A DNA stretch of 64,000 nt from Pseudomonadota bacterium. Its GTDB lineage: Bacteria; Desulfobacterota; Desulfobulbia; Desulfobulbales; SURF-16. This document shows, one piece after another, positions 2,979 to 55,597 of this stretch (positions within the stretch are counted from its first letter, which is position 1; each line of letters starts with the position of its first letter). The stretch covers positions 5,350 through 69,349 of the forward strand of contig JAZDEG010000038.1 in the NCBI GenBank assembly GCA_043809085.1, read 5' to 3'. Below the pieces are notes generated by a model. That model saw nothing but the letters and a program-made list of their open reading frames with translations. It was not told the origin of the DNA and made no database searches. The position numbers and the translations under genes were made by a program.

Positions 2979-2984
2979 GATTTA

Positions 2985-38982: not shown

Positions 38983-38989
38983 GTAATAG

Positions 38990-39019
38990 AACGTAACACA
39001 GTGTACCCAGATATGTCAA
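38990..39019 (-). promoter_or_regulatory. Putative sigma70 promoter of the RAYT gene (likely leaderless)
   Basis: TTGACA-18 bp-TACGTT with TG extension; ATG only 7 nt after the -10 and no SD. Confidence 0.5.
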
Positions 39020-40293: not shown

Positions 40294-40300
40294 AGTAGAT

Positions 40301-40384
40301 GTCTAACGGTTGGCATCACCAGCCAGCCAATGTGATGGATCGGGAAACAATGCTCTTCTGGTCTGGTGGATGTGTTGGTTCTGT
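40301..40384 (-). repeat. attC site (3' of cassette 8)
   Basis: R'' ACAGAAC ... R' GTTAGAC on the minus strand with inner palindromic arms; 84 bp. Confidence 0.88.
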
Positions 40385-40408
40385 AATTTTATTACCATGG
40401 AGGATTAT

Positions 40409-40615
40409 ATGGAAAATTTTTTGCTTTTTAGAGTTCATTACGAGGATGGTCATGAATACAAAATATACCTGAACGGAAGAATTGAAGGATTCCCTGATGG
40501 AGCGATGATAACGAATTATGCCGCTCCTATGTTTGATAAATTAACCGCTCTTGCCAATAGGCCAGATACTCAAACAAGAGCCAGGCCCAGCGATAAACCT
40601 GAGACTGTCTCTTGA
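40409..40615 (+). CDS. Cassette 8: small antisense-oriented hypothetical protein (68 aa)
   Basis: GGAGG SD 5 nt before ATG; MENFLLFRVHYEDGHEYKIYLNG...; overlaps 3' end of the minus-strand ORF. Confidence 0.45.
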   Translation: MENFLLFRVHYEDGHEYKIYLNGRIEGFPDGAMITNYAAPMFDKLTALANRPDTQTRARPSDKPETVS

Positions 40616-40840
40616 TGGCTGTTCGCACTGGTTTGCCCCAAACATATCAGCAAGTGGTTTAGCTGAAGGCGTAAAATATGCGGTTACAATGTCTGTTTCT
40701 GGATCATATTTGGAATAAGCGCCCATGTCTTTAGGTGATCCGCAGGCAATATGAGTTGGCCAAAATAATTCTTGTATTTTTGTTGTCATGCTAAAAGATT
40801 CTACTCTATCGCCAAGTTCTAGTGAGTACCATTTGTCCAT
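40541..40840 (-). CDS. Cassette 8: hypothetical protein (99 aa)
   Basis: ATG with GGAGA SD, starting about 35 bp after the cassette R' box. Confidence 0.65.
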   Translation of the reverse strand: MDKWYSLELGDRVESFSMTTKIQELFWPTHIACGSPKDMGAYSKYDPETDIVTAYFTPSAKPLADMFGANQCEQPSRDSLRFIAGPGSCLSIWPIGKSG

Positions 40841-40874
40841 TTAGGGTTCTCCGGTCGGTAGTGATTATTTAAAT

Positions 40875-40965
40875 ACAGAACGCTTAGTATAACCAGGCCG
40901 CGCCTATGAGCTTACCGCGTAGCGCCGCCACCGTTCACGCGGTCTGGTTAATACTTTTGTTATGC
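40875..40965 (-). repeat. attC site (3' of cassette 7)
   Basis: R'' GCATAAC ... R' GTTCTGT; 91 bp; near-identical arms to attC at 41989. Confidence 0.9.
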
Positions 40966-41540
40966 CTCGATGATTTGAGTGCTTTGACAAGACGGTTCAT
41001 CCCCTCATCGAATGAGTTAGAGAAGTCAGCGTATAAAATATTCTTAATTATATCTGGAGGTAGAGAATCATCTGTCACGACTGGCAATATTTTCTTTTTT
41101 AACTCCAATGCTTTTTTTATCTCAGCGGTTGCCCAGTCAGAGTTAAAGCTGTTTTGGGAATTAACAAATAATAAATAATCGCTGTCTTTAAGAAACTCAT
41201 CCACCTTTTTCCTTATATCATCACCCACCTGGATATCTTGTTGGTCCCACCAGATAACAAAAGGAAGCTCTTGTAATTCACGGTGTAGTTTTTTGACAAA
41301 TTCTTTGTCTTCGTGCGCGTAGGATATAAAAATCTTCGGTGCATTTGTGGCGTCTTTTAATTTGGCCGCCAGATAAGCGACAGCAACACCCATAAACGCA
41401 CCCAAAATACCAATAAGTATTTCTAGGCTTGCAAACGTCCTAAATTCGACAAGGAATATTAACATTGAAAATATGCTCGCCAATGAAGCAAGCAAAAGTG
41501 GGATCATTCGCTTTATAATTTTTCTTTGTATATCGTTCAT
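40935..41540 (-). CDS. Cassette 7: 2TM-TIR domain protein
   Basis: Two TM helices, then IFISYAHED, WWDQQDIQVGD, SDWATAEI (candidate catalytic Glu), ILPV, YADF; ORF ends inside attC. Confidence 0.88.
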   Translation of the reverse strand: MNDIQRKIIKRMIPLLLASLASIFSMLIFLVEFRTFASLEILIGILGAFMGVAVAYLAAKLKDATNAPKIFISYAHEDKEFVKKLHRELQELPFVIWWDQQDIQVGDDIRKKVDEFLKDSDYLLFVNSQNSFNSDWATAEIKKALELKKKILPVVTDDSLPPDIIKNILYADFSNSFDEGMNRLVKALKSSRHNKSINQTA

Positions 41541-41541
41541 A

Positions 41542-41955
41542 TTATTTGATCCAGTTTACGGCAAAAAGAAGAGTCAACAGCCCAAAAAGGCCTGGGACAA
41601 TTATTCCCCAAAACACCTTTAATTTGTCGTCGTCTTCCCAACCTAGCTTTCTTACTAATGTTGATATGCCCCACATGCCAATGACAAAACCCATTAAAAC
41701 CCACGGGACTGATGTTAATTTTTCAACGACATCGGGTGGAGGATTGTTGGCGGGCAAAGAACTCGCTATTCCAGCACTTCCCGTAATAAAGATAAGTAAT
41801 GCCGTTACGGACATATCTAAACCAACGGCAAGATCTTCTTTTCGGAATCCAGAGTGGCGGTCATTTCTGGACACATATTTGACGAATATCGTCAACGTTA
41901 CCGTGATCAGTGGCACGCCAAATTGTAAAAAATATTCGTCTCCTAAAACGATCAA
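41542..41955 (-). CDS. Cassette 7: four-TM membrane protein
   Basis: Four hydrophobic helices; TTG start with GAGGT SD; stop 1 nt before TIR gene ATG. Confidence 0.75.
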   Translation of the reverse strand: MIVLGDEYFLQFGVPLITVTLTIFVKYVSRNDRHSGFRKEDLAVGLDMSVTALLIFITGSAGIASSLPANNPPPDVVEKLTSVPWVLMGFVIGMWGISTLVRKLGWEDDDKLKVFWGIIVPGLFGLLTLLFAVNWIK

Positions 41956-41988
41956 AACAGTTACCTCATGAGTTCTTCAATATTTTTG

Positions 41989-42079
41989 GCATAACGGCTA
42001 GTATAACCAGACCGCGCCAATGCACTGGACGCTTAGCGCCGCCAACGTTCTCGCGGTCTGGTTAATACTTTTGTTGTGC
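41989..42079 (-). repeat. attC site (3' of cassette 6)
   Basis: R'' GCACAAC ... R' GTTATGC; 91 bp. Confidence 0.9.
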
Positions 42080-42085
42080 AATCTT

Positions 42086-43006
42086 TTATTCATATGGTTT
42101 TATTGGCTTTATATTAATTCTGCTCGGGACTGCAGCCAATGCCTCAATATCTATCAAATAGTTGTTAAGCAATTGAGCTTCTGCCGCCGCTGAGGCCAAC
42201 ATTTCGTCTGCATCAGGATCGCTTGATACGGGATTATCTTCAGCAAATTCCTTGCAGATAAAATTGTGATACCTTGCTGCCCACTCGTACTTTGACCGTA
42301 CTCCAGGACTTCCTTTGTATGTTTTCAAACCGTCTGTAATAGTGTTTTTGTGACTTTCGATGACCTCAAAAAACACGCCACCGTCTGGATATGCTAAAAA
42401 TGCTTCATCAAGGTAATTTAAAAAGATAGTTCCATCAGAGTCTGATAATGTGTCTCGAAATTGTGGAGCCCAATTTGCTTCACCATAAAACCCAATATGT
42501 CGCTGGAGCATTTTGACTGCCGACGGTGCTAAAGAGATACGAGGGGGGCCGCCCCCTTTGTCTTGCGCAACTGCTTCAATTAGTGCGTCCCCAAAAACGA
42601 TTTCATCATCCATGTAATGATTGCCAAATGCAATTCCACCTCTAATTAAAAAACCTTCCATCGCAAGACCAACTTGGAATTCAGCAAAAATGCTAAAAAT
42701 TTCTCCAAGCTCTGACTCTCCGTAGTCTCCGCTTTTTTTATATAAAGGGATTGGATATCCAACTACGATATTGTCCGTAAAGACCTTGATTGAAAAATAC
42801 TCGTCTCCCCCCCAACCATTTGCCCGCTTTCTCATGCGTTCATAAGCCTTCGATAAAGCATCTCTTAGTTTTGCAAGAAATTGCTCCCCCTGGCCTGATT
42901 TGTTAGCCTCTATGCTTAGCTGGGAGTATCCCAAAATATCTGCATAGCAGACCAATGACGGGATCATATTTGAGGAAGATTCAGAAAAATTATATGGCTT
43001 ATTCAT
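42086..43006 (-). CDS. Cassette 6: class III nucleotide cyclase-like protein
   Basis: YADILGY (first Asp), FTDNIVV (second Asp), IRGGIAFG, VFGDALIEA, PRI. Confidence 0.6.
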   Translation of the reverse strand: MNKPYNFSESSSNMIPSLVCYADILGYSQLSIEANKSGQGEQFLAKLRDALSKAYERMRKRANGWGGDEYFSIKVFTDNIVVGYPIPLYKKSGDYGESELGEIFSIFAEFQVGLAMEGFLIRGGIAFGNHYMDDEIVFGDALIEAVAQDKGGGPPRISLAPSAVKMLQRHIGFYGEANWAPQFRDTLSDSDGTIFLNYLDEAFLAYPDGGVFFEVIESHKNTITDGLKTYKGSPGVRSKYEWAARYHNFICKEFAEDNPVSSDPDADEMLASAAAEAQLLNNYLIDIEALAAVPSRINIKPIKPYE

Positions 43007-43017
43007 AGTTTATTACT

Positions 43018-43109
43018 GCACAACTCGTACATCACCTGCCAGCCACCGAAGTAAATTCCACGAAGTGGCCGGAAAACCTCTACTGGTCAGGTGAATGTGT
43101 TGGTTAGCC
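43018..43109 (-). repeat. attC site (3' of cassette 5)
   Basis: R'' GGCTAAC ... R' GTTGTGC; 92 bp; arms related to attC at 40301. Confidence 0.88.
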
Positions 43110-43122
43110 TATTTATCTGTTT

Positions 43123-43554
43123 TTATTGATAGTATTGCGTCACGCTTTTCTTAAAATAGAGATACCAAGCGGGAAGACTGCAAATAATTATTCCTGGAAG
43201 AATGGTATTCAATTCTATTGTCACGGGCACAGTTACTAACTCCCAAATGCAAGATGCTATAAAGAAAATAATTATAATGTGCCTAGACCAGTTTTTCCTT
43301 TTGTATATGCCAAGGGAAAGTACCGTTATTACAATACTAATTGCAAGAACGGGCATTGCTGCCCCATATTGCCAAAACTCCCTAAATGTAACCTCTGTAC
43401 CATTAATACTATAGTTTCCAATTGGGATTATTGTGCCAATTACAGATATTGGTCCTAAGATGCCAAACACGACCGTGGAAATCCGTAGGATATAAGGCAT
43501 TTCCTTTAGTGTTAAATAAATTGAGAGAAGATGATTATATATTGCGTCTTTCAT
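43123..43554 (-). CDS. Cassette 5: four-TM hypothetical membrane protein
   Basis: Hydrophobic profile; GIYKRKNWSR and WYLYFKKSVTQYY motifs; fills cassette. Confidence 0.75.
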   Translation of the reverse strand: MKDAIYNHLLSIYLTLKEMPYILRISTVVFGILGPISVIGTIIPIGNYSINGTEVTFREFWQYGAAMPVLAISIVITVLSLGIYKRKNWSRHIIIIFFIASCIWELVTVPVTIELNTILPGIIICSLPAWYLYFKKSVTQYYQ

Positions 43555-43566
43555 TTATTTTTCGGA

Positions 43567-43630
43567 GGCTAACGTTCAAATTGAGGGGCTGCGCGCTTTT
43601 GCGCAGTCCCTCTCGAATGCAGTGTTAGGG
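43567..43630 (-). repeat. attC site (3' of cassette 4), short type
   Basis: R'' CCCTAAC ... R' GTTAGCC; 64 bp; GAGGGACTGCGC/GCGCAGCCCCTC arms. Confidence 0.9.
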
Positions 43631-44301
43631 CTGTTATGGCACTTAGTCTGCCAAATCAATACAACTCCATATCCAACCAAGATCAGGGCATACAGTGGCC
43701 AGAACATAAACCACCAAAGAAAGCCGTAGCCCGGAGCCACCGTTTTGAACGTGATGGGTGACCCAATAATCAAAGTCGCTTGCTCGTTAACTAATTGCGG
43801 CCCAACCTCAAGGACGGAGATGTTGAATGTTGAGTAACCCGAGGGGAGGCTTGGTCTCAATGCCAAATTGGGTGGCCATTGAAAGCGGTTGGGGTTTCCA
43901 TCATCAACAAAGGGAACTAGATCGCGACCTATCGTTGCCGCCCCATAAGCGCTCGCAGGTAATGCCTCATAAACGACTTCTTTGCCCTCGCCACGGACCA
44001 GCAGCTTTATAGGGGCACCTGGTTTCGGAAATTCAAGAAAACCCGATTTTCTCCAATCCCTTCCTGTCCTTGCATAATCTCCAAGTTCTGGCCTTTTTTG
44101 ACCTTCGGTACTGTTGAATCTGAGCGAGAGACGCAGCACATCCGGAAGAGGTCGAAATACCGAAACGTCTATTGATGCCTTCGGACGCAACTCAAAAGTG
44201 ACAAGCTTCGCCGAGGACAAATCATCAGCGAGAACCCCAGCCGCTACTAAAACTACCAAGATAGACCAGAGCGCCCAATGAATTTTCAGCCTGCGAGACA
44301 T
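43576..44301 (-). CDS. Cassette 4: hypothetical protein with N- and C-terminal TM helices
   Basis: 241 aa; GC higher than neighbours; ORF reads through most of its attC. Confidence 0.75.
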   Translation of the reverse strand: MSRRLKIHWALWSILVVLVAAGVLADDLSSAKLVTFELRPKASIDVSVFRPLPDVLRLSLRFNSTEGQKRPELGDYARTGRDWRKSGFLEFPKPGAPIKLLVRGEGKEVVYEALPASAYGAATIGRDLVPFVDDGNPNRFQWPPNLALRPSLPSGYSTFNISVLEVGPQLVNEQATLIIGSPITFKTVAPGYGFLWWFMFWPLYALILVGYGVVLIWQTKCHNSPNTAFERDCAKARSPSI

Positions 44302-44312
44302 AGGTGATAAAG

Positions 44313-44436
44313 CCCTAACGCAAAGCTAAGACGCGCGCCCAGCTTGGGTTAAAGTAAGTTCGTATTGCACTAAAGATTGACGAAGCCGTGAAAGAAAAGG
44401 CGAGTTAGCGCGTCGTGCTTGAGCGAATTGTTATAT
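44313..44436 (-). repeat. attC site (3' of cassette 3), long type
   Basis: R'' ATATAAC ... R' GTTAGGG; 124 bp; GCTCAAGCACGACGCGC/GCGCGTCTTAGC arms. Confidence 0.88.
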
Positions 44437-45450
44437 TTATTTTATGTATTGATATCGGCAAGTTTTTGAATAGCCCCAGTTTGTCTTTTTCATCAAGTAA
44501 ACATCACTCATTTCATGATCTAATTCTTTCCAGTTTTCATCATATAAATGGTTGCTAAACCCATAAAACAATATGTTGTTTTGGTGTATAAGCAATTCAG
44601 CAGAAGCAACAGGTGGATTGTTTGTTTTTATTTCTCCTGTTGGAGATTCTATGAAATACCTATTGTCATCAAGATAAGTACGTTCAATCCATTCATCGCC
44701 AGTTTCAGTACATATTTTATTTATTGATAGTTCATATATGATACTATTGTTGTCATATCCTTCAACATTTTTTAAAATTGTTGATTTGACAGCAAATTCA
44801 CCTTTTTCATAAATGCTCTTATAATATTCAGGCAATACATTACTTTCATATAAAGTTTTAAAAATCCTATTTATTGTTATTTTGTCATTTGCATTATCTA
44901 ATCTATTCCATTTTGCTCTTACGAAAAAATCGCTTTGGCTTTTTATGGAGCATCTATATGGTTGTTTTGTAGGTATTTTATTTAGAAAATCTTCAAAAGA
45001 TTCACATAATTCTTTATCGTCCGGGCTCATATGGATTATGTGAGTTTTTATTCCTGTAGGCCACCAATTAAGTATCTCATAGCGGCCAAACCCTTTTTCT
45101 GGATAGTCAGTTTTCTTAACTATAATTCCTAACTCTTTGTTACGTTCCCCATAAATGTTTTTTAAGCACCAATTCAGAGAGGCATCGTCTTGGTATTTAG
45201 AGCATTCATTCCTTTGTTTAAACCACTGTTTTTGGTCACTTTTTATATTCGCAACTCCTCTTGAAAGAATTTTTTTGTAATTTTTTGTCATATTTAAATC
45301 TAGCCAAGATAGATAACTGTCTCTGCAGATAGCTTTTTCAATCTTGGTTTGGGCACGACCACAGTCAAAGCCAGCTTTTTGTTCTCCTGCAAAAACTAAA
45401 AAGGGTAGAATGCAACTAAATATTATTATTGTTAAAAGATAAATTTTCAT
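44437..45450 (-). CDS. Cassette 3: secreted LprI (DUF1311)-domain protein
   Basis: Signal peptide from MKIYLL (ATG 45450), FDCGRAQTKIEKAICRD..LS.LD, QKQWFKQRNEC, CLKNIY..R. Confidence 0.8.
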   Translation of the reverse strand: MKIYLLTIIIFSCILPFLVFAGEQKAGFDCGRAQTKIEKAICRDSYLSWLDLNMTKNYKKILSRGVANIKSDQKQWFKQRNECSKYQDDASLNWCLKNIYGERNKELGIIVKKTDYPEKGFGRYEILNWWPTGIKTHIIHMSPDDKELCESFEDFLNKIPTKQPYRCSIKSQSDFFVRAKWNRLDNANDKITINRIFKTLYESNVLPEYYKSIYEKGEFAVKSTILKNVEGYDNNSIIYELSINKICTETGDEWIERTYLDDNRYFIESPTGEIKTNNPPVASAELLIHQNNILFYGFSNHLYDENWKELDHEMSDVYLMKKTNWGYSKTCRYQYIK

Positions 45451-45461
45451 GAGTAGATTAA

Positions 45462-45583
45462 ATATAACGTTGGCGATCACCGGCCCGCCTGCCCTTGGCA
45501 ACCAGTTTTCCGGAAAGGAAAGAGTTGAATTGCCACCGTAAAAACGGCAGTGTTCGCGGGTCGGGTGAATTGCATGGTTCTGT
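45462..45583 (-). repeat. attC site (3' of cassette 2)
   Basis: R'' ACAGAAC ... R' GTTATAT; 122 bp; TCACCCGACCCGC/GCGGGCCGGTGA arms. Confidence 0.88.
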
Positions 45584-45718
45584 TGAGGTTTTATTAAAAT
45601 GAATAAAATTTTTGTTGTTAGAATATTATTTTTCCTTTCGTTGGTCCCTTTGGCTGGGAAGGTAATGTTTGGGCTTGATAAAGATATTATGGATGCCGCT
45701 TCCTATTTTCTGTTGTGT

Positions 45719-46525
45719 TCATCCAGCTTTCTCGCTTGCATCGGTAGTTAGCGAGACAAACTCAGCATCAATTATGTCAGCATCGATTGTTTTGTTGCCG
45801 TCATGCCTCATTTCAAGATATGGCTGTATTTTGGGCATAATTGACAAGACCTGATCGGTCATGTTGGTGGCCCATGTAATAATGGCAACAACAAGTAAAA
45901 GAGTTCTACCAAATTTTGATTTTATTATTTTTTCAAAAAATGTCAGGTCGTTGTTGGTGCTTGCAGCAAAAACAAGTAATTCTTTTTCAACCAGCTTTGT
46001 GCCTAAAATTTTGTGTTTTTCAAGTGATAATTTAATGTCAACTAGCGATTTAAGAATAAATGTTTTTAGCTCTAAATCTAATTCTTCAGATGAAGATTCT
46101 TCTATTGCCTCGTCAATTTTTTTAATGATTTTATCAATTACTGATGATTCTATAACTTTTTCAGGATTAGAACGAGAAAGGCTATTTGAGCAATATTCAA
46201 GACCCAATAAGGTGTCATTGCCTATGTTGTTAATAAATGTGCTCCAATGTGTGTCTAAGTTGACAATTTTAAAAGCTCTTTCAATATTTGGAAAAACTTT
46301 AAAATGAGTTTGGGAATATTCTTGATCGAATATTTCAATTTGTTTTTTTATCTCTTTTGGTAGGCCATAAATCAGAGACAAATGGTTTAATAATTTTGAA
46401 ACATCATTGTTTTCGATTTTTAATATATTGCACCATGCATTTTTGATAGGTTCACTTTTAGATAAAGTAAGCCCGCTTTTTAACAAATTGTGCAACCTTG
46501 CTGCTGGGTTATTTTCTATAAGCAT
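45719..46525 (-). CDS. Cassette 2: hypothetical helical protein with a C-terminal hydrophobic helix
   Basis: 268 aa AT-rich ORF starting NNPAARLHNLL; fills most of the cassette. Confidence 0.75.
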   Translation of the reverse strand: MLIENNPAARLHNLLKSGLTLSKSEPIKNAWCNILKIENNDVSKLLNHLSLIYGLPKEIKKQIEIFDQEYSQTHFKVFPNIERAFKIVNLDTHWSTFINNIGNDTLLGLEYCSNSLSRSNPEKVIESSVIDKIIKKIDEAIEESSSEELDLELKTFILKSLVDIKLSLEKHKILGTKLVEKELLVFAASTNNDLTFFEKIIKSKFGRTLLLVVAIITWATNMTDQVLSIMPKIQPYLEMRHDGNKTIDADIIDAEFVSLTTDASEKAG

Positions 46526-46559
46526 AATAAATGAACCTTGTTTCGATTGGCCTTAAAAA

Positions 46560-46650
46560 ACAGAACGATTAGGTCACTTGCGCCGCCACCCAAACCTTGC
46601 CGCGTCAGCGCCGCGTACGTCACGGCGTCAAGTGAACCGCCTGGTTGAGC
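46560..46650 (-). repeat. attC site (3' of cassette 1)
   Basis: R'' GCTCAAC ... R' GTTCTGT; 91 bp; GGTTCACTTGACGCCG/CGGCGCAAGTGACC arms with extrahelical bases. Confidence 0.9.
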
Positions 46651-46654
46651 AAAA

Positions 46655-49600
46655 TTAGTTCTTCTTACTGGCTTTATTAAAAACAGCCTTCAAATTCTTA
46701 TCCCTTGGGTAATCTTTCAATCCTTTTTTGAGGAGAGAAACCGCCTCTTCCTTGAGATTTGCAGCCATTAACAGCTCCCCACATAGCTGATAAAGTGAAA
46801 CAAGATTCCCAATCTTTGGGCCAATAATCGCTTTCTTGAGCAACCTAATCGCATCTTGTCGTCGCCCTGTCTTTGACATTAGTTGTGCGCATGTTTGGTA
46901 TAGGTGGACCATGCCAGGCAACCCAGGTATACGCATAGCGTTCTCAAGCAACTTTATCCCTTCATCTGTACGGCCTGCTTTGGCTAGCAACTTTGCGCAA
47001 GTTTGGTAAAGAACAGCTTTATTGGATTGGGCCGGGGAGTTAATTCCCCTCTTCATCAAGGCAATAGCGTCTTCAAGGCGTCCGGCTTTGACCATCAACT
47101 CTGAACATAATTTATAAAGTGAGAACTGTGTATACTGGTCTTTATCACCAATACCTTTTTCCAGGACCTGAATAGCGTCATCCAAACGGCCTTGTCTCGC
47201 TGTTAAATCAGCAAGCATCTGATATAGATGATTCTTGTCCTTCATTTTTGGAACTGACACGCCTTGAATTAATACTTCAATGGCGTCATCAATTTTCCTG
47301 GCATGAAATAGAAGTTTTGCACATGCAAGATAAATCGAAGGTTCGATCGACATCCGCGTGGTGGATAAGGCCCTTTTTAGGAATTTTACAGCCTCGTCTG
47401 ACTTATTGGACTCCTCCATGATTTTTGCAAATGAATGGTAAATCGGCACTGGATCGCCAACAGCTTTTGAAGCGCACCCCTTTTCTAAAATCTCCACGGC
47501 TTCGTCGAATTGTTGGATTTTCACCAACAGTTCTGCACAAGCACGATAAATATTCTTTGGATCTATTACTCGTGAATCGGCTATCCCTTCTTTAAGCCAA
47601 TATATAGCCTCCTCGTCTTTTCCAGCTTTTACCAGAAAATCAGCTAAGTTAAGGTAAAAAGAGTAACGCTTTGTAATATTGTCTATTTTTATGCCACGTT
47701 TGAGTAATTCAATCGCATCGCTGGTACGACTGGTTTTTGCTAGTAGGTCTGCACAACGTAGATACAATGTCCCCAACTCTGGTATATCAGGAGTATCAAT
47801 ACCCTTTTTCAAAATCCTTATGGCATCATCAAATTTCTCTGCTTCTTCCATATATTGTGAACACCGACTAATAAGTGATGAAAGACAGGTGACGCCGGGT
47901 GTATTTATTCCATCCTCAAGGACTTCAATCGCATCTTGCAGCCTGCTATCTTTTACAAGGAGTTGTGCGCAACGAAGATAGACCGAAAAAGAATTGCTCC
48001 CTCCTCCAAGAAATTTGAGTGCCCTTTTCTGAGCGTTCAGCATGGCCTCAATGCCATTGATAGTATATTCAAGCTCTATAAGAAGCAGCCAGACAGCATA
48101 GTAGGCTTTCTGGCCTACGGCTTTACGAACATGGCCCAAGGCGTTCCTGTAATCATCGCCGATATTGCGATGTTTTAAGCATAAAGCGAGGTGGTATTCC
48201 AGCCCTTTTGGCCTATCTTTGTCTGGAAGCGCTGAAATAAGTGCTATGCGCTCTTCAAGTATTTCGACATTCTCAGGAACTTTGGATTGAATGGGCTTCG
48301 TAATTAGAGACAGAGCAAATCTTGTAAGTTTCTCACTTGCGAGATGAAGCTCAGAAATACGATTGGCTTCGAAAAGATGATGCCGCAACTCTGCATAAGA
48401 AGCGGCCATTCTCCGTGCACCGCCTTGGCGAGTGGCCTTAAAAAAACGAAAATGGTAGTTAGCAGCAAGACTGTGGGCCTCTCTCCACTCTTCCTTTTCA
48501 GCACGAAGTCGGGAAACACTGATTTCTCTTGCGAGTGGATGAATGGAATCATAGCCGAAAGAAAAGTCCCACAGGAATCTATCGATTAGCTGCCTTCGCA
48601 ATTCTTTCGGGGGAATAGTACTCTTGTTAAATTCAGCAAAAGCCTCTTTTGTAAATGGGCGACGATGGACCGCCATGAAGCGCATAAATGACAATAAATC
48701 ATTATCCATATCTGGAAGAGCTCGTTCAATCAGCGCACGTTCAAAGTCTTCGACCAAATGAGGGTCGAGATTCACATCCCCCGGTATAAAGAGATCTGGA
48801 GCTAAAGAAAGCAGATTATCGAGAGTCTCATACTTGAGGCTACCAACTAGTGTTTTAAGCGCCCGAGGATTCCCTCCCAAACGGTGGCCAATCTCTTCCA
48901 ATCGTTCTGATTCAATTTCCTCGGTTAAATCAGCTGACCCAAGAAGTTCCAAAAGAAATGCTGCCGCCTCGGTATCCGTAAGTCCGCTGAGTTTTCGTAA
49001 AGCGCAACTTTCACTCCAGCGAGCTGTCATGACTGCACGATTACTTAGGATCAACAGTCTACCATTGGTGTTTGGGTTGTTATTGAGCCTCTCGATAAAA
49101 GTCTGCCATTTTTTTTGGGGGTATGTTTTAGTCGCAGGAAAAAACCGCTGGAACTCATCAATTATTACGAATATCTTCTCACGACGAAGAACCGTAAATA
49201 GTAGGTTGAAGAGGTCGGCATCTGGCCCCCTGTCCATACCCTGTTTAAGATCAAGGATGCCGTAGTCGCTGAGAGCTTCTGCCAGCTCGGTGAATAATTC
49301 AGTAACAGGGTCAGGTGAATCGGCCTGTGGCAAAACAAAGATTGGTCTGAGATCAGAATTTTGTGCTACATCCCGCGCTAATTGGGTTTTTCCGCACCCT
49401 GGCACACCCTGCAATATTGCAACAGCAGGGCCGTTCTTGAGCCACTCTGATAAAAAGAAATTGAAATGTTTTTTGCGCAGTTCGCCATAAAAATGGCTTG
49501 GCTGTTTTTCCCCTTTATCGGGACTCAAATTGCTATGCAAATCCTCAGTATTGCCAGGCGGCAATACATCTGATTCTGGGACTCCTTGAGAAGTTTGAAG

Positions 49601-50044
49601 ATTATAACGTTGGAGAATTAGTTCTGCGATCTCATTTGGTTTTCTTGAGCGAATGCTAATATAGCCGTCACCTGGGAGAATACCGAGATCAGTAAAGTCG
49701 ACAGAATCGTCAAAATTCAAGAGCATAATCCTGCCTTGATCTCTAGTCGCTATAAATTGCTTTATATGTCGCCACTCCAGTTTACACCATTGTTTTTCTT
49801 TGTATTTTTCACACAGAAAGATAACGATTAATTCCGATTGAGTACGATAGAGTCCAGGAAGATAGACATCAAGGTCTAGAAGGGCAAATTCACTTTCATG
49901 GAAATCGTCATAAAGTATTCTGTTTTTAGAGAACTTTTCAGAGAGACATTCTGCTACTTTCTCGACAAAACCACGTTTGTCACCTGGGAAAGATAGCGCT
50001 ATGGCAAATCTTCTTGGTGTTGATTTATCCATATTTACCGCCAT
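46655..50044 (-). CDS. Cassette 1: TIR-STAND NTPase-TPR protein (NLR/Avs-like)
   Basis: N-terminal TIR (FAIALSFPG, WCKLEW), Walker A GVPGCGKT, Walker B FVIIDEFQ, GGNP motif, IHPL, long C-terminal helical repeats (e.g. DAI..L.KGI). Confidence 0.85.
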   Translation of the reverse strand: MAVNMDKSTPRRFAIALSFPGDKRGFVEKVAECLSEKFSKNRILYDDFHESEFALLDLDVYLPGLYRTQSELIVIFLCEKYKEKQWCKLEWRHIKQFIATRDQGRIMLLNFDDSVDFTDLGILPGDGYISIRSRKPNEIAELILQRYNLQTSQGVPESDVLPPGNTEDLHSNLSPDKGEKQPSHFYGELRKKHFNFFLSEWLKNGPAVAILQGVPGCGKTQLARDVAQNSDLRPIFVLPQADSPDPVTELFTELAEALSDYGILDLKQGMDRGPDADLFNLLFTVLRREKIFVIIDEFQRFFPATKTYPQKKWQTFIERLNNNPNTNGRLLILSNRAVMTARWSESCALRKLSGLTDTEAAAFLLELLGSADLTEEIESERLEEIGHRLGGNPRALKTLVGSLKYETLDNLLSLAPDLFIPGDVNLDPHLVEDFERALIERALPDMDNDLLSFMRFMAVHRRPFTKEAFAEFNKSTIPPKELRRQLIDRFLWDFSFGYDSIHPLAREISVSRLRAEKEEWREAHSLAANYHFRFFKATRQGGARRMAASYAELRHHLFEANRISELHLASEKLTRFALSLITKPIQSKVPENVEILEERIALISALPDKDRPKGLEYHLALCLKHRNIGDDYRNALGHVRKAVGQKAYYAVWLLLIELEYTINGIEAMLNAQKRALKFLGGGSNSFSVYLRCAQLLVKDSRLQDAIEVLEDGINTPGVTCLSSLISRCSQYMEEAEKFDDAIRILKKGIDTPDIPELGTLYLRCADLLAKTSRTSDAIELLKRGIKIDNITKRYSFYLNLADFLVKAGKDEEAIYWLKEGIADSRVIDPKNIYRACAELLVKIQQFDEAVEILEKGCASKAVGDPVPIYHSFAKIMEESNKSDEAVKFLKRALSTTRMSIEPSIYLACAKLLFHARKIDDAIEVLIQGVSVPKMKDKNHLYQMLADLTARQGRLDDAIQVLEKGIGDKDQYTQFSLYKLCSELMVKAGRLEDAIALMKRGINSPAQSNKAVLYQTCAKLLAKAGRTDEGIKLLENAMRIPGLPGMVHLYQTCAQLMSKTGRRQDAIRLLKKAIIGPKIGNLVSLYQLCGELLMAANLKEEAVSLLKKGLKDYPRDKNLKAVFNKASKKN

Positions 50045-50086
50045 TCTTTCACTCTATAATTATGCTTTGAGGTTTATTCCTGGCAT

Positions 50087-50156
50087 GCTCAACCAAGTGT
50101 AGACTCCCGAAAAGACGCAGAGTTTTACGTCTCTTCGGGAGCATAAAAAGTTATTA
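50087..50156 (-). other. Integrase-proximal recombination site (attI position)
   Basis: Core GTTGAGC (50087-50093) is the exact complement of the cassette 1 R'' GCTCAAC; adjacent 14-bp inverted repeat CTCCCGAAAAGACG/CGTCTCTTCGGGAG. Confidence 0.75.
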
Positions 50157-50202
50157 TACCGCGAATCTAACACATAATACCGCCATATCCGGTTTTATCC
50201 AG
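50153..50202 (-). promoter_or_regulatory. Candidate cassette promoter(s) Pc
   Basis: Minus strand has TGGATA-16-TATTAT and a second GCGG-TATAAT just downstream, both pointing into the array. Confidence 0.4.
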
Positions 50203-50250
50203 CTTTTTAGCTTGATAAAAATATTTTTTTTAGTAGTTTGATAAACAGGT

Positions 50251-50262
50251 GAACAGATGTTC
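50251..50262 (+). promoter_or_regulatory. Putative LexA operator (GAAC-N4-GTTC)
   Basis: GGT-GAACAGATGTTC-GCC palindrome 56 bp upstream of intI ATG; matches the Gram-positive-type SOS box. Confidence 0.6.
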
Positions 50263-50318
50263 GCCTTATGGCGGTATTTGATTGTTTGTTTGTGTCAGGA
50301 AACGAGAGGGAAAAAACC

Positions 50319-51308
50319 ATGCAGAAGCCAAAGTTGTTGGATCAGATGAAAGATGCCATCCGTCTCAAGCATTATAGTATGCGAACAGAAGAGTGTTATA
50401 TTTATTGGGTTAAGAAGTATATTTTTTTTCATAATAAAAAGCATCCGGCGGAAATGGGCGCTGAGGAGGTCAGCCGTTTTCTGACGCATCTTGCCGTACA
50501 TGATAAAGTGGCATCTTCAACCCAGAATCAGGCGTTCAGCGCTATTCTTTTTCTTTATCGCCATGTATTGAAGTTGGAACTCGGGTTGCTCCAAAATGTG
50601 ACCAGGGCTAAGAAGCCGGTGAAGCTTCCGGTTGTTTTCACGCGGGAGGAGGTTCGATCTCTCCTGATGCAATTCGATGGCAGCAAGTGGTTGATGGCGA
50701 ATTTACTGTATGGCGCCGGACTGCGGCTGAATGAATGCCTCAGTCTGCGGGTGAAAGATATTGATTTTGGTTACAAACAGATTGTGGTCAGGGATGGAAA
50801 GGGGAATAAAGACCGGATAACCATGTTGCCGGTTTTTCTGATTGATCCCTTGAAACGGCATCTGGAGAAGGTGAAATCCCTGCATGAAGGGGATTTGAAA
50901 AAGGGGTTCGGTTCGGTGTATCTGCCTTACGCTCTGGAGAGAAAGTACAGAAATGCAGGCAAGGAATGGGGCTGGCAGTATGTTTTTCCGGCAACTGCAA
51001 TTTCAACCGACCCGCGGAGCATGCAAAGACGCCGGCATCACCTGTCGGAGAGCGTCCTGCAAAGAGCAATGAAGCAGGCATTACGGAATGCGGGAATCAA
51101 TAAACACGGCAGCTGTCACACCCTGCGACATTCATTTGCCACGCATCTGCTGGAGTCGGGGTACGACATCCGCACTGTGCAGGATTTGCTTGGGCACAAG
51201 GATGTCAGCACAACGATGATATATACCCATGTCCTCAACCGGGGCGGCAGGGGAGTGCGAAGTCCGGCAGACATGCTTTTTGCCGCAGCCGACGGGGGAA
51301 GCCTTTGA
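50319..51308 (+). CDS. intI: Integron integrase (tyrosine recombinase)
   Basis: HYSMRTE..Y..W, HPAEMG, STQNQA, LYGAGLR, integron-specific insert [45 protein letters not shown]. Confidence 0.97.
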
Positions 51309-51928
51309 TAACGGGCAAACTGACGGATCGTCAGAAAAACGTCCTGGACTACCTCGGGTCATACCAGCAGCAGCATGGGATGTCGCCGACAGTCCGGGAG
51401 ATTTGCGTTCACTTCGGGTTGAGTTCACCGGCCGGAGTGCATAAAATTCTGCGACGTCTTATTGAGAAAAATGTCTTGCGTTCTCTGGCTGGGAAAAATC
51501 GTTCCTGGCAGTTGGTGGGCGGACCGACCGGGAAATCTCTTCCTGTTTTCGGTTCTATAGCCGCCGGGGCGCCGGTTGAGGCGATTGGCGAATGTCAGGA
51601 TGAACTGCCTTTGGATCCTGGGTTTTTCGGCAGCGAGTCTTGTTTCGCTTTGCTGGTCAAGGGGGATTCCATGATCGATGCACATATCATGGATGGAGAT
51701 CTGGCGATTATTCAACCTCAGCCGACAGTTATAAGCGGGCAGATAGCCGCGGTGCTGGTTGATGATCTTCTGGTGGAGGCGACACTCAAGATATTCCGCA
51801 GGAAGAAAAATGGGGTGGAGCTGCACGCAGCCAATAATTCCTATGACCCTCTGGTGTTTGAGGGGAGTGACGCGGCGCGGGTCAGTATAGTCGGCAAATT
51901 CGTCGGCGTGATCAGAAGATCGGGGTAG
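51305..51928 (+). CDS. lexA: LexA-family SOS repressor
   Basis: LTDRQ..VL, PTVREI winged HTH, AAG cleavage site, GDSM Ser, TLK Lys; TTG start overlaps intI TGA. Confidence 0.9.
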
Positions 51929-51935
51929 AATGAAA

Positions 51936-51951
51936 GTCCTGCGCCGGCAGG
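51936..51951. terminator. Short GC hairpin between convergent lexA and ABC genes
   Basis: TCCTGC-GCCG-GCAGGA with T-rich sequence following on both strands. Confidence 0.45.
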
Positions 51952-51996
51952 AGTTTCTTAAGGAGTTTTTTGTTTGCATCCCGGTGTTTCCGAAGG

Positions 51997-53820
51997 TTAA
52001 CCGGATACTGCCGCCTCGCCGTTTGAGCCGTTTCCGCTCAGCTGCAGATCATGCAGGCGGCGGTAGAGGCCGCCGTTTATCATCAGCTCATCATGGCTGC
52101 CCTGCTCGATGATGCGGCCATGCTCCATCACCAGGATGTTGTCGGCTTTTCTGATGGTGGAAAGCCGGTGGGCGATGACGATGCTGGTGCGGCCCGCCAG
52201 GGTCGAGGCAATGGCGCGGTCGATGAGGATCTCCGTTTCCGAGTCAACGCTTGAGGTGGCTTCGTCAAGGATCAGCACCTCCGGGTCGCGGGCAAGAACC
52301 CTGGCAAAGGCGAGCAACTGTTTCTGGCCGGCGGAAAGCCCCATGCCTCCTTCACCTATTATGGAGTTCACTCCTTCCGGCAGCCTGCTCACCATGCCGG
52401 TGAGCTGCGCCCGTTCAATGATATCCATAAGCCCCTCATCGTCTATTTCCCGGTCAAGCAGGATGTTGTCCCTGATGCTGCCGGGAATAATGAAAACCTC
52501 CTGCATCACCAGACCCATTCTGCTTCTCAGCCACTTGCTGTCAAGGTCGCGCAGGTCGCGGTCGTCCAGAAGGATTTGCCCTTGGTCAGGGTCATAGAAA
52601 CGTTCAAGCAGATTGACGATGGTTGATTTGCCCGAGCCGGTGGCGCCGACAATGGCCAGGGTTTTTCCCGGTGGAACGGTAAAAGACAGGTCATGAAGAA
52701 TGGGTGATCCCTGGTTATAGGAAAAGGAAACATGGCGGAATGCCAAAGAGCCACGGGCGGACGGTTCTTTTGTGCGGAATGATCCTGATGGCAGATCAGG
52801 AGCGGTGTCCAGCAGCTCGAAGATGCGTTCCGCCGAGGCCAGGGCTGACTGGACAATGGAATATTTCTGGGAAAGATCGCGAATGGGCTGGAAAAAGAGG
52901 CGCATGTAGGCAATGAAGGCGGAGAGCTCGCCGAGTGTCATCTGCTGCTGGATAACCTTGCCGCCGCCATACCAGATGATCACACCAATTGCGATGGAGG
53001 AAAAGAGTTCGATGGCCGGCATGAAAATGCCGAAAATTTTGATCTGGTACATGTTTTTTTCCAGGTATGCCTGGCTCAGTTCGACGAATTTCTGGTAGGT
53101 GTCTTTTTCCCGGAGAAAGGTCTGGATCACCGCGATACCGGAAAGAGACTCCTGGAGAAAGGAATTGATGCGGGCAAGCTGGGTGCGGATAATCCGGAAG
53201 GCGTCCCTGGCAAGGCGACTGAACCAGATGGTGTTGCCGATGATGAGTGGGACAAGGAATGTCAGGATAAGAGCCAGCCGCCAGTTCATCCAGTAAAGGA
53301 TGACCATGATGCCGGCCAGCTGGATGAAATCGTTGAACAGGGTAACGATGACCGAGGTGAACATCTCATGCATGTTCTGGATGTCATTGGTAAGCCGGGT
53401 CACCAGTTTGCCGCCGGGGTTGTTGTTGAAAAAGGGAAGGTCCAGGTCGAGCATGTGCCGGAAAAGCTGCTGGCGCAGCCGGTGCATGATGGTCTGGCCG
53501 ATCCATTCAAGGATGAGTACCTGGCAGAAATTGGCGGCAAAGCCGCTGATAATGACGCCGATAAAGAGGGTGGCCAGCCGGGCCAGTCCGGCAATACGGG
53601 CGGATTGGTCAAGATCGGTGTTGGTGATAAAACGGTCGATGCCGATGCGCACCATATAGGGCAGAGCAAGACCTGCGCCGATGACGATGAAGGAAAGCAG
53701 AATGGCCAGCGCCATTTTTTTCCAGTGCGGCCGTGAATAGGCGATGATGCGCCGCCAGATTCCGGTGTCGCCCACACGCCCGAGCTGATCCTCCTCAAAG
53801 TAGCCGAATCCGTAGCGCAT
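51997..53820 (-). CDS. ABC exporter subunit (MdlB/YheH-like, TMD-NBD)
   Basis: GATGSGKS, LSAGQKQ, LILDEATSSVD, IAHRLST. Confidence 0.93.
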   Translation of the reverse strand: MRYGFGYFEEDQLGRVGDTGIWRRIIAYSRPHWKKMALAILLSFIVIGAGLALPYMVRIGIDRFITNTDLDQSARIAGLARLATLFIGVIISGFAANFCQVLILEWIGQTIMHRLRQQLFRHMLDLDLPFFNNNPGGKLVTRLTNDIQNMHEMFTSVIVTLFNDFIQLAGIMVILYWMNWRLALILTFLVPLIIGNTIWFSRLARDAFRIIRTQLARINSFLQESLSGIAVIQTFLREKDTYQKFVELSQAYLEKNMYQIKIFGIFMPAIELFSSIAIGVIIWYGGGKVIQQQMTLGELSAFIAYMRLFFQPIRDLSQKYSIVQSALASAERIFELLDTAPDLPSGSFRTKEPSARGSLAFRHVSFSYNQGSPILHDLSFTVPPGKTLAIVGATGSGKSTIVNLLERFYDPDQGQILLDDRDLRDLDSKWLRSRMGLVMQEVFIIPGSIRDNILLDREIDDEGLMDIIERAQLTGMVSRLPEGVNSIIGEGGMGLSAGQKQLLAFARVLARDPEVLILDEATSSVDSETEILIDRAIASTLAGRTSIVIAHRLSTIRKADNILVMEHGRIIEQGSHDELMINGGLYRRLHDLQLSGNGSNGEAAVSG

Positions 53821-53821
53821 A

Positions 53822-55597
53822 TCAGGAAGGCCCCCCCTGGGCGATGGTCTGGTGCTGGTAAATTGTCCGGTAAAAGGAATTTTCGGTAATCAGGGATTCG
53901 TGGCTGCCCCGGGCTGCGATGCGCCCATCCTCAAGCACGAGTATTTCCGTGGCATCAGCCAGAGGCGCCACCCGGTGAGAAACGATGATGCAGATTTTCC
54001 CCTGGAGTGACGATGCCATGCGGCGGATGATGGCATGTTCGGTTTCCATATCCACAGCCGACAGGCCGTCGTCGATAATGACGATGGGCCGGTCGAGCAG
54101 AAGGGCCCGGGCCAGGGCGATGCGCTGCCGCTGGCCTCCGGAGATCTTGACGCCGCGCTCACCGACCCGGGACTGATAACCGTCTGGCATTTCCAGAATT
54201 TCATCATGGACAGCCGCCATCCGGGCCGCTTCGTGGATCTGCTCAATGTCCGCGTCTGCCCGGCCCATGGCGATGTTGAACTGAATGGTCTCGGAAAAAA
54301 GAGTAGCCTGCTGGGGCACATAGGCGATATTGGAGCGCACCGTGGCAAGCGACAGGGTATTGACATCAAGGCCGTCGATGAGATAGGTGTTGTCGGCCAC
54401 CTGATAGAGGCGGGAAAGAATGGTGCACAGAGCGCTTTTTCCGGATCCGGTTTTGCCCACCACGCCGACAATGCCCTGCTGGAGGGTCAAGGTCACATCC
54501 CGCAGGGCGGGCTCATTTTGTCCGTCATAAGTGAAGGTAAGGTGGTTCAAGGTGATTTCCCGGGGCCGGTGCAGGAGTTCTCCCCCGCCGGGAGGGTCAG
54601 TGAGCTTCGGCCTTTCCGCAAAAACAGCTTGGATGCGGGCCATGGAGGTTGCCCCCCGCTGAAAGAGGTTGGCCACCCAGCCGATGGCCATCATCGGCCA
54701 GGTGAGCATGAACAGGTACGAGATAAAGGCGACAAAATCACCGATTGTGATGGCGCCGCGGATGGTGAACCGTCCCCCGAAAAAAAGAACCAGCAGCAGG
54801 CAGCAGTTGGCGACAAGGCCTGAAAGTGGAAAGAGGATACCCTGCACAGCGGCGACTTTGAGATTGCCCTGCACGTATTTTTGTCCCAGCAGGCCGAAGC
54901 GGTCTCCCTGGCTCTTTTCCTGGGTGTAGGCCTTGATCAGATGGATGTTTTTCAGTGTGTTCCCGGCAAATTCCGTGAGAGAGGCAAACAGTTCCTGTAC
55001 CTTTTCAAATCGTTTGTGAAGCTGGGAAGAGAGCAGGCGGGTGGAGAGCGCCAGCACCGGCATGGGAGTGACCGCGATCAGAGTGAGCATAGGATGAATA
55101 TACGCCATGAAGCAGAGTGCGGCCACGGTCATCACCACTGCGTCCACGGCTGCAATGAGACCCATGCCGCAGGCCAGCTGGACGGCTGTGAGGTCGTTGC
55201 CGGTAAGGGCCATGATATTGCCTGTGGGGTAACGCTGGAAAAACTGGCTGTCCAGGGTCAGTATGTGTGCCAGCAGGCGGTCGCGCAGATCCCGTTCCAC
55301 CAGCCGGGAAAAGCCGAGGACGAAATAGCGCCAGAGAAAGCGGCAGAGGGCAATGCCGAGCGCGGGAAGAAGGATGAGCCCCGCATATTTGAGAAGAAGA
55401 GGGTCTGTGGCCGTGCCTTTTTCCAGGGCATCGACAGCTTTTTTGATGAAACGCGGAATCAAAAGCTGAAGAAAATCCACCCCAAGCAGGGCAACAAAAC
55501 CGACAATCAGGCGCAGCCGGTATTTGCGGAAGAAGGGGCCAAGCAGGGAAACGGCATGGAGGAAGCGGGGCTGTATTTTTTCCTGAACATCGGCCAA
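53822..55597 (-). CDS. ABC exporter subunit (MdlA/YheI-like, TMD-NBD)
   Basis: GKTGSGKS, ISGGQRQR, degenerate IIDDGLSAVD, VSHR; likely heterodimer with downstream gene. Confidence 0.93.
   Translation of the reverse strand: MADVQEKIQPRFLHAVSLLGPFFRKYRLRLIVGFVALLGVDFLQLLIPRFIKKAVDALEKGTATDPLLLKYAGLILLPALGIALCRFLWRYFVLGFSRLVERDLRDRLLAHILTLDSQFFQRYPTGNIMALTGNDLTAVQLACGMGLIAAVDAVVMTVAALCFMAYIHPMLTLIAVTPMPVLALSTRLLSSQLHKRFEKVQELFASLTEFAGNTLKNIHLIKAYTQEKSQGDRFGLLGQKYVQGNLKVAAVQGILFPLSGLVANCCLLLVLFFGGRFTIRGAITIGDFVAFISYLFMLTWPMMAIGWVANLFQRGATSMARIQAVFAERPKLTDPPGGGELLHRPREITLNHLTFTYDGQNEPALRDVTLTLQQGIVGVVGKTGSGKSALCTILSRLYQVADNTYLIDGLDVNTLSLATVRSNIAYVPQQATLFSETIQFNIAMGRADADIEQIHEAARMAAVHDEILEMPDGYQSRVGERGVKISGGQRQRIALARALLLDRPIVIIDDGLSAVDMETEHAIIRRMASSLQGKICIIVSHRVAPLADATEILVLEDGRIAARGSHESLITENSFYRTIYQHQTIAQGGPS

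Follow-up and report, generated by a model that had tools for sequence, protein, structure and literature searches.

An integron integrase gene and the sole lexA gene of a Desulfobulbales-like bacterium probably form one LexA-controlled operon

Introduction

LexA control of the integron integrase gene (intI) and autoregulation of lexA are both textbook knowledge. An integrase gene that is directly followed by a lexA gene raises the question whether recombinase and repressor are produced from one promoter under one operator, and whether such a LexA serves the integron or the cell as a whole. A pair of this kind is present in a stretch of 64,000 nucleotides (positions 5350-69349 of contig JAZDEG010000038.1, designated C38, of assembly GCA_043809085.1), which is termed the window. 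The window derives from a Desulfobulbales-like bacterium of the Thermodesulfobacteriota, the genome assembly of which is 3.85 Mb in size, consists of 42 contigs and is 96% complete. This placement is based on RecA, which has its best matches (79-82%) in metagenome-assembled genomes labelled Desulfurivibrionaceae or Desulfobulbaceae. The initial annotation of the window had proposed that this pair is a self-contained operon, in which the integrase gene is controlled by its own LexA.

SOS control is central to the concept of 'adaptation on demand' by integrons, and LexA has so far been treated as a host factor in this concept. In the large survey of Cambray et al. (2011; PMC3108266), no LexA motif other than the beta/gamma type is reported to regulate intI, and the absence of the box elsewhere is explained by a missing or incompatible host LexA and by integrase decay. 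LexA is purely a host factor in two reviews from 2022, including PMC8946536, and PMC8946536 and PMC3681742 describe an unregulated integrase as costly and as lost in hosts without lexA. A description of a cis-encoded lexA in an integron was not found in the full-text literature searched, with subscription journals and the supplement of PMC3108266 lying outside this search.

Comparative sequence analysis leads us to conclude, with a probability of roughly 0.7, that the integrase gene and the only lexA gene of the cell form one operon, which consists of a promoter, an operator, intI, lexA and a terminator, and which is repressed by LexA, induced through RecA and self-closing.

Results

Overlapping intI and lexA genes

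The intI gene is located at 50319-51308 of the plus strand and encodes a protein of 329 aa, with Phage_integrase and Phage_int_SAM_4 domains. The protein matches TIGR02249 with 482.9 bits (cut-off 265) over positions 1-314 of 315 in a single stretch, and is therefore an integron-type tyrosine recombinase that includes the IntI-specific extra domain. The motifs GLRLNE, HTLRHSF, LLGH and IYTHV are readable in its translation, and we take them to be the R-H-R-Y catalytic set. The reading frame is open from 50268 to 51308 on the plus strand. The ATG at 50319 is likely the true start, because it is preceded by GAGAGGG (50304-50310), because the N-terminus that it gives, MQKPKLL, is common to the orthologues, and because the ATG at 50268 is replaced by GTG in a related contig, which is 97% identical and comes from a metagenome. 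The ATG at 50268, which lacks a ribosome-binding site and is not conserved, was rejected as the start.

The lexA gene (51305-51928, plus strand) starts with TTG and encodes a protein of 207 aa, which contains a LexA_DNA_bind domain (PF01726, residues 5-66) and a Peptidase_S24 domain (PF00717, residues 80-200). The initial annotation had described it as intact, with a helix-turn-helix, an Ala-Gly site and a Ser/Lys dyad, and this description is borne out. The protein scores 158.4 bits against the TIGR00498 equivalog model (cut-off 110.95). When it is aligned to E. coli LexA chains (7b5g and others), its AAG, GDSM and TLK stand opposite VAAGEP, GMSM and TVK, such that the Ala-Gly site (IAAGAP), the serine (GDSM) and the lysine (TLKIF) match the cleavage and catalytic positions of the E. 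coli protein. Judged by the model and the DNA-binding domain, this protein is a bona fide LexA. The genome also contains recA (565 bits). When it is searched for a second lexA, as the initial annotation had suggested, none is found: this gene is the only full-length lexA, and the two other S24 matches are umuD genes, one in a SRAP-umuD-umuC cluster and the other beside a transposase gene.

The two genes overlap by 4 nt, as had been noticed initially. The sequence TTGA at 51305-51308 provides both the TTG start of lexA and the TGA stop of intI (51306-51308). A purine-rich sequence, GGGGGAAG, is located at 51294-51301, 3 nt upstream of the lexA start. A terminator-like hairpin, detected by a consensus scan on both strands at 51937-51952, lies between lexA and a convergent ABC-transporter gene, and is kept in the sister species G010.

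A conserved palindrome upstream of intI

The initial annotation had also pointed to a GAAC-N4-GTTC palindrome with matching flanks 56 bp upstream of the intI start. This palindrome is present as described. Its core, GAACAGATGTTC (50251-50262), is part of an 18-mer, GGTGAACAGATGTTCGCC (50248-50265), which is separated from the intI ATG at 50319 by 56 nt and which is a putative LexA operator. The 18-mer is positioned between attI and intI, just past a putative intI promoter (50212-50239, plus strand), which would consist of a -35 hexamer TTGATA (50212-50217), a spacer of 16 nt and a -10 hexamer TAGTTT (50234-50239). The box found here is of the GAAC-N4-GTTC type, and not of the beta/gamma type, CTGT-N8-ACAG. 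The box starts 8 nt past the proposed -10 hexamer in the window and in loci L117, L119 and L122, where the promoter is likewise a prediction; the arrangement is TTGATA-16-TAGTTT-8-box in the window and TTGATA-17-TATAAT-8-box at the same place in L117. This spacing would place the box at about +1 to +18. The sequence GCTTGATAAAA is conserved in five of the eight aligned loci, and the box then follows. The right arm of the putative operator shares sequence with a weak terminator-like hairpin in the intI leader (50261-50274, plus strand), in which CGCC-TTAT-GGCG precedes a T-rich run; this hairpin is not conserved in the orthologous loci L117, L119 and L122.

In a tree of 110 LexA proteins (quick IQ-TREE search, LG+G4, SH-aLRT support), the LexA of the window falls into a clade of 13 rows (clade A, support 99), ten of which are linked to intI. 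Of the three unlinked rows, one is located at a contig edge, one has a fragment of intI 1.3 kb upstream, on the far side of inserted repeats, and one, in genome G052, has no intI. The box is present in all nine clade-A loci for which upstream DNA is available (the window, L117, L119, L122, L128, L123, L004, L005 and L136). It has the form (G/T/A)GTGAACA-N3-GTTC(A/G)(Y)(N), 18 nt in length, and constitutes an invariant island 5' of intI in seven loci besides the window. In alignment A1, which comprises eight loci from at least four families plus one metagenome-assembled genome (MAG) and has a mean column identity of 46%, the columns GTGAACA.A.GTTC are invariant. In the 97%-identical strain, known from a bioreactor metagenome contig, G50256A and G50263A turn the box into the fully symmetric GGTGAACAAATGTTCACC.

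The lone lexA of G052 (L136) belongs to clade A, has no adjoining intI, and is preceded by the perfect palindrome GGTGAACAAATGTTCACC, which lies between a TTGACA and the lexA ATG. GTGAAC-N4-GTTC occurs only once in this genome of 4.5 Mb, namely at this gene. Because the box directly precedes a lone lexA of the same clade, it is probably the operator of that LexA. A position weight matrix (PWM) was built from six to nine orthologous sites, including that of the window, and real boxes score 19.7-28.3 bits with it. In all 22 intI loci that lack lexA, the best score is at most 8.6 bits within 600 bp upstream or in all upstream DNA available. The box is also absent from five intI loci that are linked to a LexA of the other clade, and a search for a shared palindrome upstream of intI in other-clade-linked loci L112, L131, L137 and L139 gave none that is common to them. 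Comparison of the loci thus identifies the palindrome as the candidate operator of this LexA clade.

Recurrence of the intI-lexA pair

The initial annotation had asked for a survey of the adjacency among relatives, and this survey indicates that the pair is recurrent. It covered a sample of 301 genomes of the order, with lexA in 110 of them and intI above the cut-off in 170. All 122 lexA loci of this sample were searched with the IntI of the window, and intI or a remnant of it is located immediately 5' of lexA on the same strand in 14 of them, which represent six families. These 14 are found among the 35 loci of the smaller families, and none among the 87 loci of two large families. The intI gene is of full length in ten of the linked loci and runs into the end of a contig in one more. 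In the other three, from G010, G033 and G046 (L109, L116 and L123, respectively), intI has decayed by deletion to a remnant and the adjoining lexA is intact. Cases also occur outside the sample. When public genomes were searched with this LexA, two of 76 loci have an upstream intI, both from one MAG labelled Desulfobacterales; in one of these, L004, the upstream intI is a fragment, at a distance of about 1.3 kb from lexA. When loci were collected with this IntI, one of 80 has a downstream lexA (at least 700 bp of downstream sequence was available for 76 of the 80).

The linked loci are distributed over at least two LexA clades. The second clade consists of 20 rows (support 100), the members of which are 30-35% identical to the LexA of the window, and contains a linked subclade of four and one further linked row. 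The label 'linked' requires at least seven changes on the LexA tree, five of which are forced by well-supported branches, and linkage has therefore arisen several times. The IntI proteins encoded beside clade-A lexA genes are 67-78% identical to that of the window, and the other IntI proteins examined from the order are at most 61% identical. This split by clade-A linkage suggests that integrase and repressor co-vary as a module. From the recurrence of the pair and of its box, the intI-lexA module is judged to be real and conserved.

A parallel case is provided by L220, a contig in a MAG labelled Candidatus Methylomirabilis, in which intI (2164-3231) and lexA (3228-3848) have the same architecture with a different operator-repressor pair. 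The LexA of L220 scores 239 bits against E. coli LexA, compared with 94 bits for the LexA of the window, and its intI is preceded by an E. coli-type box, TACTGTATGATTATACAGTA, which is seen in this locus only. That L220 is assigned to a genome bin from a distant phylum may be due to misbinning, or else the module as a whole may have been acquired horizontally.

Weighing of alternative explanations

Several results weigh against one operon with a dedicated LexA. The bare GAAC-N4-GTTC motif is not enriched in the whole genome (47 copies versus about 59 expected), and this count was dropped as evidence; the box is considered to be beyond chance because it is conserved across loci, not because of the number of motifs. 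The predicted intI promoter is not called by a consensus scan, and its -10 hexamer, TAGTTT, is weak. The PWM used for the genome scan was derived from six sites, and may be too strict for a degenerate regulon. In a metatranscriptome run (X20, short contigs only), no contig extends across the intI-lexA junction; the contigs obtained are one of 164 nt, which is identical to the window over 50822-50958 within intI, and others at 50100-50206, and they may derive from carried-over DNA. Long spacers separate intI from lexA in some linked loci, with about 130 nt in L112, about 207 nt in L128, and 300-1300 nt, filled with inserted repeats, in L005 and L004. Finally, in G010 (L109) only about 340 bp of intI are left and the box is gone, and the lexA gene is 97% identical with a pN/pS of 0.12; in G033 (L116) two deletions leave only intI codons 93-135 between the promoter region and lexA, and the operator is lost. 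Because lexA outlives intI and the box in these two genomes, this promoter is not required for its expression and selection. The gene may be served by an internal promoter or by read-through, and may have functions beyond the control of intI.

It is unlikely, in the light of the genome scan, that this LexA is instead the general SOS repressor of the host, located beside the integron by chance, with a regulon of degenerate sites that the matrix misses, in which case the linkage would bring nothing special to the integron. The gene is the sole lexA of the genome, its product passes the LexA equivalog model, recA and two umuD loci are present, and the PWM comes from few, closely related sites, all of which would suit such a repressor. 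The scan itself gives a different picture. The box of the window is the top site genome-wide with 24.2 bits, a score that is partly circular because this site is among the six training sites, and the runner-up, with 17.7 bits, lies on the background tail of the 3.85-Mb genome. The initial annotation had asked whether the box also precedes recA. It does not: the best score upstream of recA is 1.6 bits, and those upstream of the two umuD loci are 3.5 and 0.6 bits, so that no box precedes recA or umuDC. The SRAP-umuD-umuC cluster, located on contig C24 around 42160-45639, has no LexA-like box upstream. With these weak scores and without any other site above 17.7 bits, a global SOS regulon is not seen; this check covered recA and the two umuD loci individually, with uvrA and other repair genes not individually located.

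The secondary sites do not resemble a regulon either. Those with 12-17.7 bits, which were considered as a wider regulon and rejected, are inside genes or precede unrelated genes, namely those for an ArsR-like regulator with an ORF of unknown function, MsrAB and a transglutaminase-like protein, and no repair gene was found among 11 open reading frames (ORFs) translated beside the top secondary sites. In nine other clade-A genomes, the counts of GTGAAC-N4-GTTC are mostly near those of a reversed-pattern control, and no match other than the operator was seen to precede a gene. A 14-mer common to three genomes, GTGAACAACGGTTC, was rejected, since it codes for a SEQRFR motif in sensor proteins. Furthermore, lexA is above the cut-off in only nine of the 40 genomes of the family and is missing from the other 31, including two 99%-complete genomes of the same genus that have intI (438 bits). 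This distribution indicates that LexA is not a stable core regulator here, and the repeated origin of the linkage also argues against chance proximity. A LexA with a single strong operator, that of its own operon, would be a dedicated integron switch rather than a global SOS regulator, and the LexA of the window appears from the scan to be such a switch, with one strong operator genome-wide. It may nevertheless have a wider degenerate regulon, given the small number of training sites.

The second alternative is that the two genes are adjacent without forming an operon: lexA would be transcribed from a promoter located at the junction or within the 3' part of intI, intI would be transcribed separately, and the tight spacing would reflect compaction or insertion of an integron platform beside lexA. 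Such an arrangement would explain why lexA is intact and under purifying selection in G010, and likewise kept in G033, and the spacers of 130-300 nt in L112, L128 and L005 could accommodate promoters. The position of the operator, in contrast, is difficult to reconcile with it. In linked clade-A loci the operator is always located 5' of intI and never in the junction, and it directly precedes lexA solely in the locus without intI (L136). The consensus scan gave no promoter-like site on the plus strand from the box to the start of lexA, including the 3' half of intI. The deletion in G033 joins the upstream promoter region to the intI remnant and lexA, which suggests that lexA is still read from the same upstream side. 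The junctions also argue against separate transcription. Besides the overlap in the window, intI and lexA overlap in L135 and, with a 4-nt ATGA, in L220, and they are separated by a single nucleotide (TAA-T-ATG) in L117, L119 and L122; overlaps or 1-nt gaps are counted in five loci from three lineages. The gap is 7 nt in L137 and about 17 nt in L131. Taken as sequence features, the intI-lexA junctions are operon-like, and separate transcription of the two genes is improbable.

Finally, that the palindrome is not a LexA site, but a binding site of IntI or of another regulator, or a hairpin of the intI leader that functions as RNA or DNA, is very improbable, because its location near attI, where integrase-binding repeats are expected, and the overlap of the weak hairpin at 50261-50274 with its right arm are outweighed by the same box before a lone lexA with neither intI nor attI nearby (L136), by its absence from the 22 lexA-less and five other-clade-linked intI loci, by the lack of conservation of that hairpin, and by the fact that GAAC-N4-GTTC is the LexA motif type of Gram-positive bacteria.

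The integron and its cassette array

The locus upstream of the operator has the anatomy of an integron. The attI crossover is assigned to the minus strand at 50087-50093, after the first base of GTTGAGC (plus strand, GCTCAAC). This sequence is the exact complement of R'' of the first attC (GCTCAAC, 46644-46650), as is expected for a cassette inserted at attI. GTTAGAT (on the plus strand ATCTAAC, near 50166-50172) was also considered for the crossover, but it does not match the first attC, in contrast to GTTGAGC at 50087-50093, and was discarded. The region that separates the attI crossover from the promoter contains an imperfect inverted repeat (50104-50141), which reads AGACG...CGTCT and has CCC-AAAAG flanks. 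Similar hairpins are located at the same place in L116, L117, L119, L128, L004 and L005, in spite of different first cassettes. This repeat may be bound by the integrase as a part of attI, or may form a structured element.

The cassette array (40301-50090, minus strand) contains at least eight cassettes, the genes of which are all on the minus strand, and the GC content falls to 0.31-0.46 in this region. They are divergent from intI and mostly of unknown function: when 11 proteins of the cassette region (38293-50044) were scanned, nine were without a Pfam family and the other two were TIR proteins. The attC of cassette 1 (46560-46650, minus strand) is 91 nt in length, extends from R'' GCTCAAC to R' GTTCTGT and folds into a stem of -39.5 kcal/mol. 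Its R' matches R'' of the next attC (ACAGAAC, 45577-45583). Sites follow at 44313-44420, 43018-43109, 41989-42079, 40875-40965 and 40301-40384, the second site being placed at about 45577. These sites were identified from repeats, intergenic folds and matching of R' to R'', and R' often departs from GTTRRRY here; a strict RYYYAAC...GTTRRRY regular expression with a fold filter found no attC. Complementarity of R' and R'' is observed at five consecutive boundaries, first for the attI pair and then for GTTCTGT/ACAGAAC (twice), GTTGTGC/GCACAAC and GTTATGC/GCATAAC. Because this chain of complementarity runs from attI across the array, the locus is, as read from its sites, a real chromosomal integron to which cassettes have been added successively at attI.

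Cassette 1 is unusually large, with about 3.5 kb (46560-50090). Its gene (46655-50044, minus strand) encodes a protein of 1129 aa, in which a TIR domain at the N-terminus is combined with a STAND-like NTPase and TPR repeats, a defence or NLR-like layout, for which PADLOC gives only weak matches (TIR-NLR, E = 4.6e-4). A second cassette gene (40935-41540, minus strand) encodes a TIR protein of 201 aa (96.6 bits against TIR_2; ThsB-like and PDC-S66 in PADLOC), so that two TIR proteins are encoded within one small array. An IS200-like (Y1) transposase gene (38293-38982, minus strand) borders the array at its distal end, just past the last attC recognised. A fragment of a second integron integrase gene is found elsewhere in the genome (G000, contig C34:215062-215499; 181 bits, model positions 87-232).

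Several of the other linked loci differ in their surroundings. L112 (G020), L137 (G053) and L139 (G128) represent a different platform, in which IntI is extended at its N-terminus by roughly 120 aa and a direct repeat of about 25 nt (GGCGGAATCCGTACCTATTGGAATA) occurs three to four times upstream; IntI frames with a length of about 450-500 aa are common in the order. In L112, which is from another genus, intI-lexA adjoins the same two ABC-transporter genes as in the window (51997-55597), with 66-74% identity. Its orientation is opposite, its LexA is of the other clade and its IntI is 57% identical to that of the window. The shared neighbours could reflect a shared hotspot, an inversion with replacement, or another process. 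The spacers of L004 and L005 contain a repeat beginning with GCGGAGACGCAGTGACGC, with inverted partners, and that of L004 contains an extra small ORF; the intI of L004 is reduced to its first half.

Discussion

The proposal of a self-contained intI-lexA operon is supported in its main part by the overlap, the shared upstream box, the operon-like junctions and the recurrence of the pair. The contrast that was drawn with control by a separate host LexA falls away, because the genome contains a single lexA, so that the LexA of the integron is the only LexA of the cell.

The operon would work as follows. In unstressed cells, a LexA dimer would bind GGTGAAC-N4-GTTCRCC, overlapping the transcription start, and both intI and lexA would be off. 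When single-stranded DNA activates RecA, LexA would cleave itself at the Ala-Gly site and the operon would be derepressed. IntI would then be made and could act at attI and attC, where cassettes would be excised, reordered or captured. New LexA would be made from the same message, coupled to intI through the TTGA overlap, and would close the promoter once the signal fades, such that induction would give a self-limiting pulse. The hairpin at 51937-51952 would end the operon.

An integrase is costly when unregulated and most genomes of this lineage lack lexA, so that an integron carrying its repressor would keep its brake. This brake on a costly integrase is likely the selective reason for the cis-encoded lexA. 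A broader reading, which we regard as tentative and slightly less likely than not, is that the operator, intI and lexA travel as a portable module that supplies a private LexA, with only its own promoter as a strong target, to lineages that often lack lexA, and that such modules have originated several times independently, each with an operator matched to its LexA (GTGAAC-N4-GTTCAC for clade A and CTGT-N8-ACAG for the E. coli type). If this is true, the private-LexA pattern would point to strong selection against an unregulated integrase, and both the sensor of damage and the brake would be supplied by the integron itself rather than by the host.

As far as sequence comparison goes, the new elements would be lexA as the distal gene of an intI operon, an operator other than the beta/gamma type at the intI promoter, and the recurrence of this module. 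A conserved intI-lexA operon would extend LexA control of integrons past the beta/gamma group and would represent a genetic means by which the cost of an unregulated integrase is avoided in lexA-less hosts. With one promoter, one operator and two genes, it would also be a minimal system, in which feedback between recombinase and repressor could be measured and which could be moved to model hosts. The box is a candidate LexA-binding motif for this Thermodesulfobacteriota clade, for which no experimentally defined motif is known to us, no search aimed at one having been made.

The arrangement shares features with several known systems. The class 1 IntI1 and the IntIA of Vibrio cholerae are the SOS-controlled integrases reportedly described by Guerin et al. 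in 2009. As in these integrons, the candidate LexA box is located between attI and intI, where the intI promoter is predicted, and the recombinase would be derepressed upon DNA damage or the entry of single-stranded DNA. IntI1 and IntIA depend, however, on an unlinked host LexA and CTGT-N8-ACAG, whereas here GTGAAC-N4-GTTCAC is the box, lexA directly follows intI in the proposed operon, and a second strong site is not seen in the genome. Autoregulated lexA operons are represented by lexA-dinF of E. coli and lexA-dinB of Geobacter, in which lexA comes first and its partner is a repair or polymerase gene. As in these operons, LexA would repress its own promoter here and produce negative feedback. 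In contrast to them, lexA is distal here and would be translationally coupled to the gene of a site-specific recombinase. LexA of Geobacter is said, in work of Jara et al. from 2003, not to bind the recA promoter, and the LexA of the window likewise apparently has no site there. The adaptive mutagenesis cassette lexA2-imuA-imuB-dnaE2, reportedly described by Erill et al. in 2006, also combines a LexA copy in cis with the stress-induced genes that are under its control and that generate variation, and is also patchily distributed. Its cargo consists of error-prone polymerases and lexA leads, whereas here the cargo is an integron integrase and lexA is distal. GAAC-N4-GTTC is the box of the Bacillus-type LexA (DinR). 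The box of the window has the same core half-sites with the same spacing, but differs in its host, in its arms (GGTGAAC/GTTCACC), and in that no regulon is detected beyond its own operon. SetR of SXT is named in PMC3108266. As with SetR and lambda CI, the element encodes its own self-cleaving S24 repressor, and induction would track the SOS signal of the host irrespective of the LexA of that host. Lambda CI and SetR, however, belong to the CI family and have other DNA-binding domains, whereas the repressor here is a LexA of the TIGR00498 type, encoded in a sedentary chromosomal integron.

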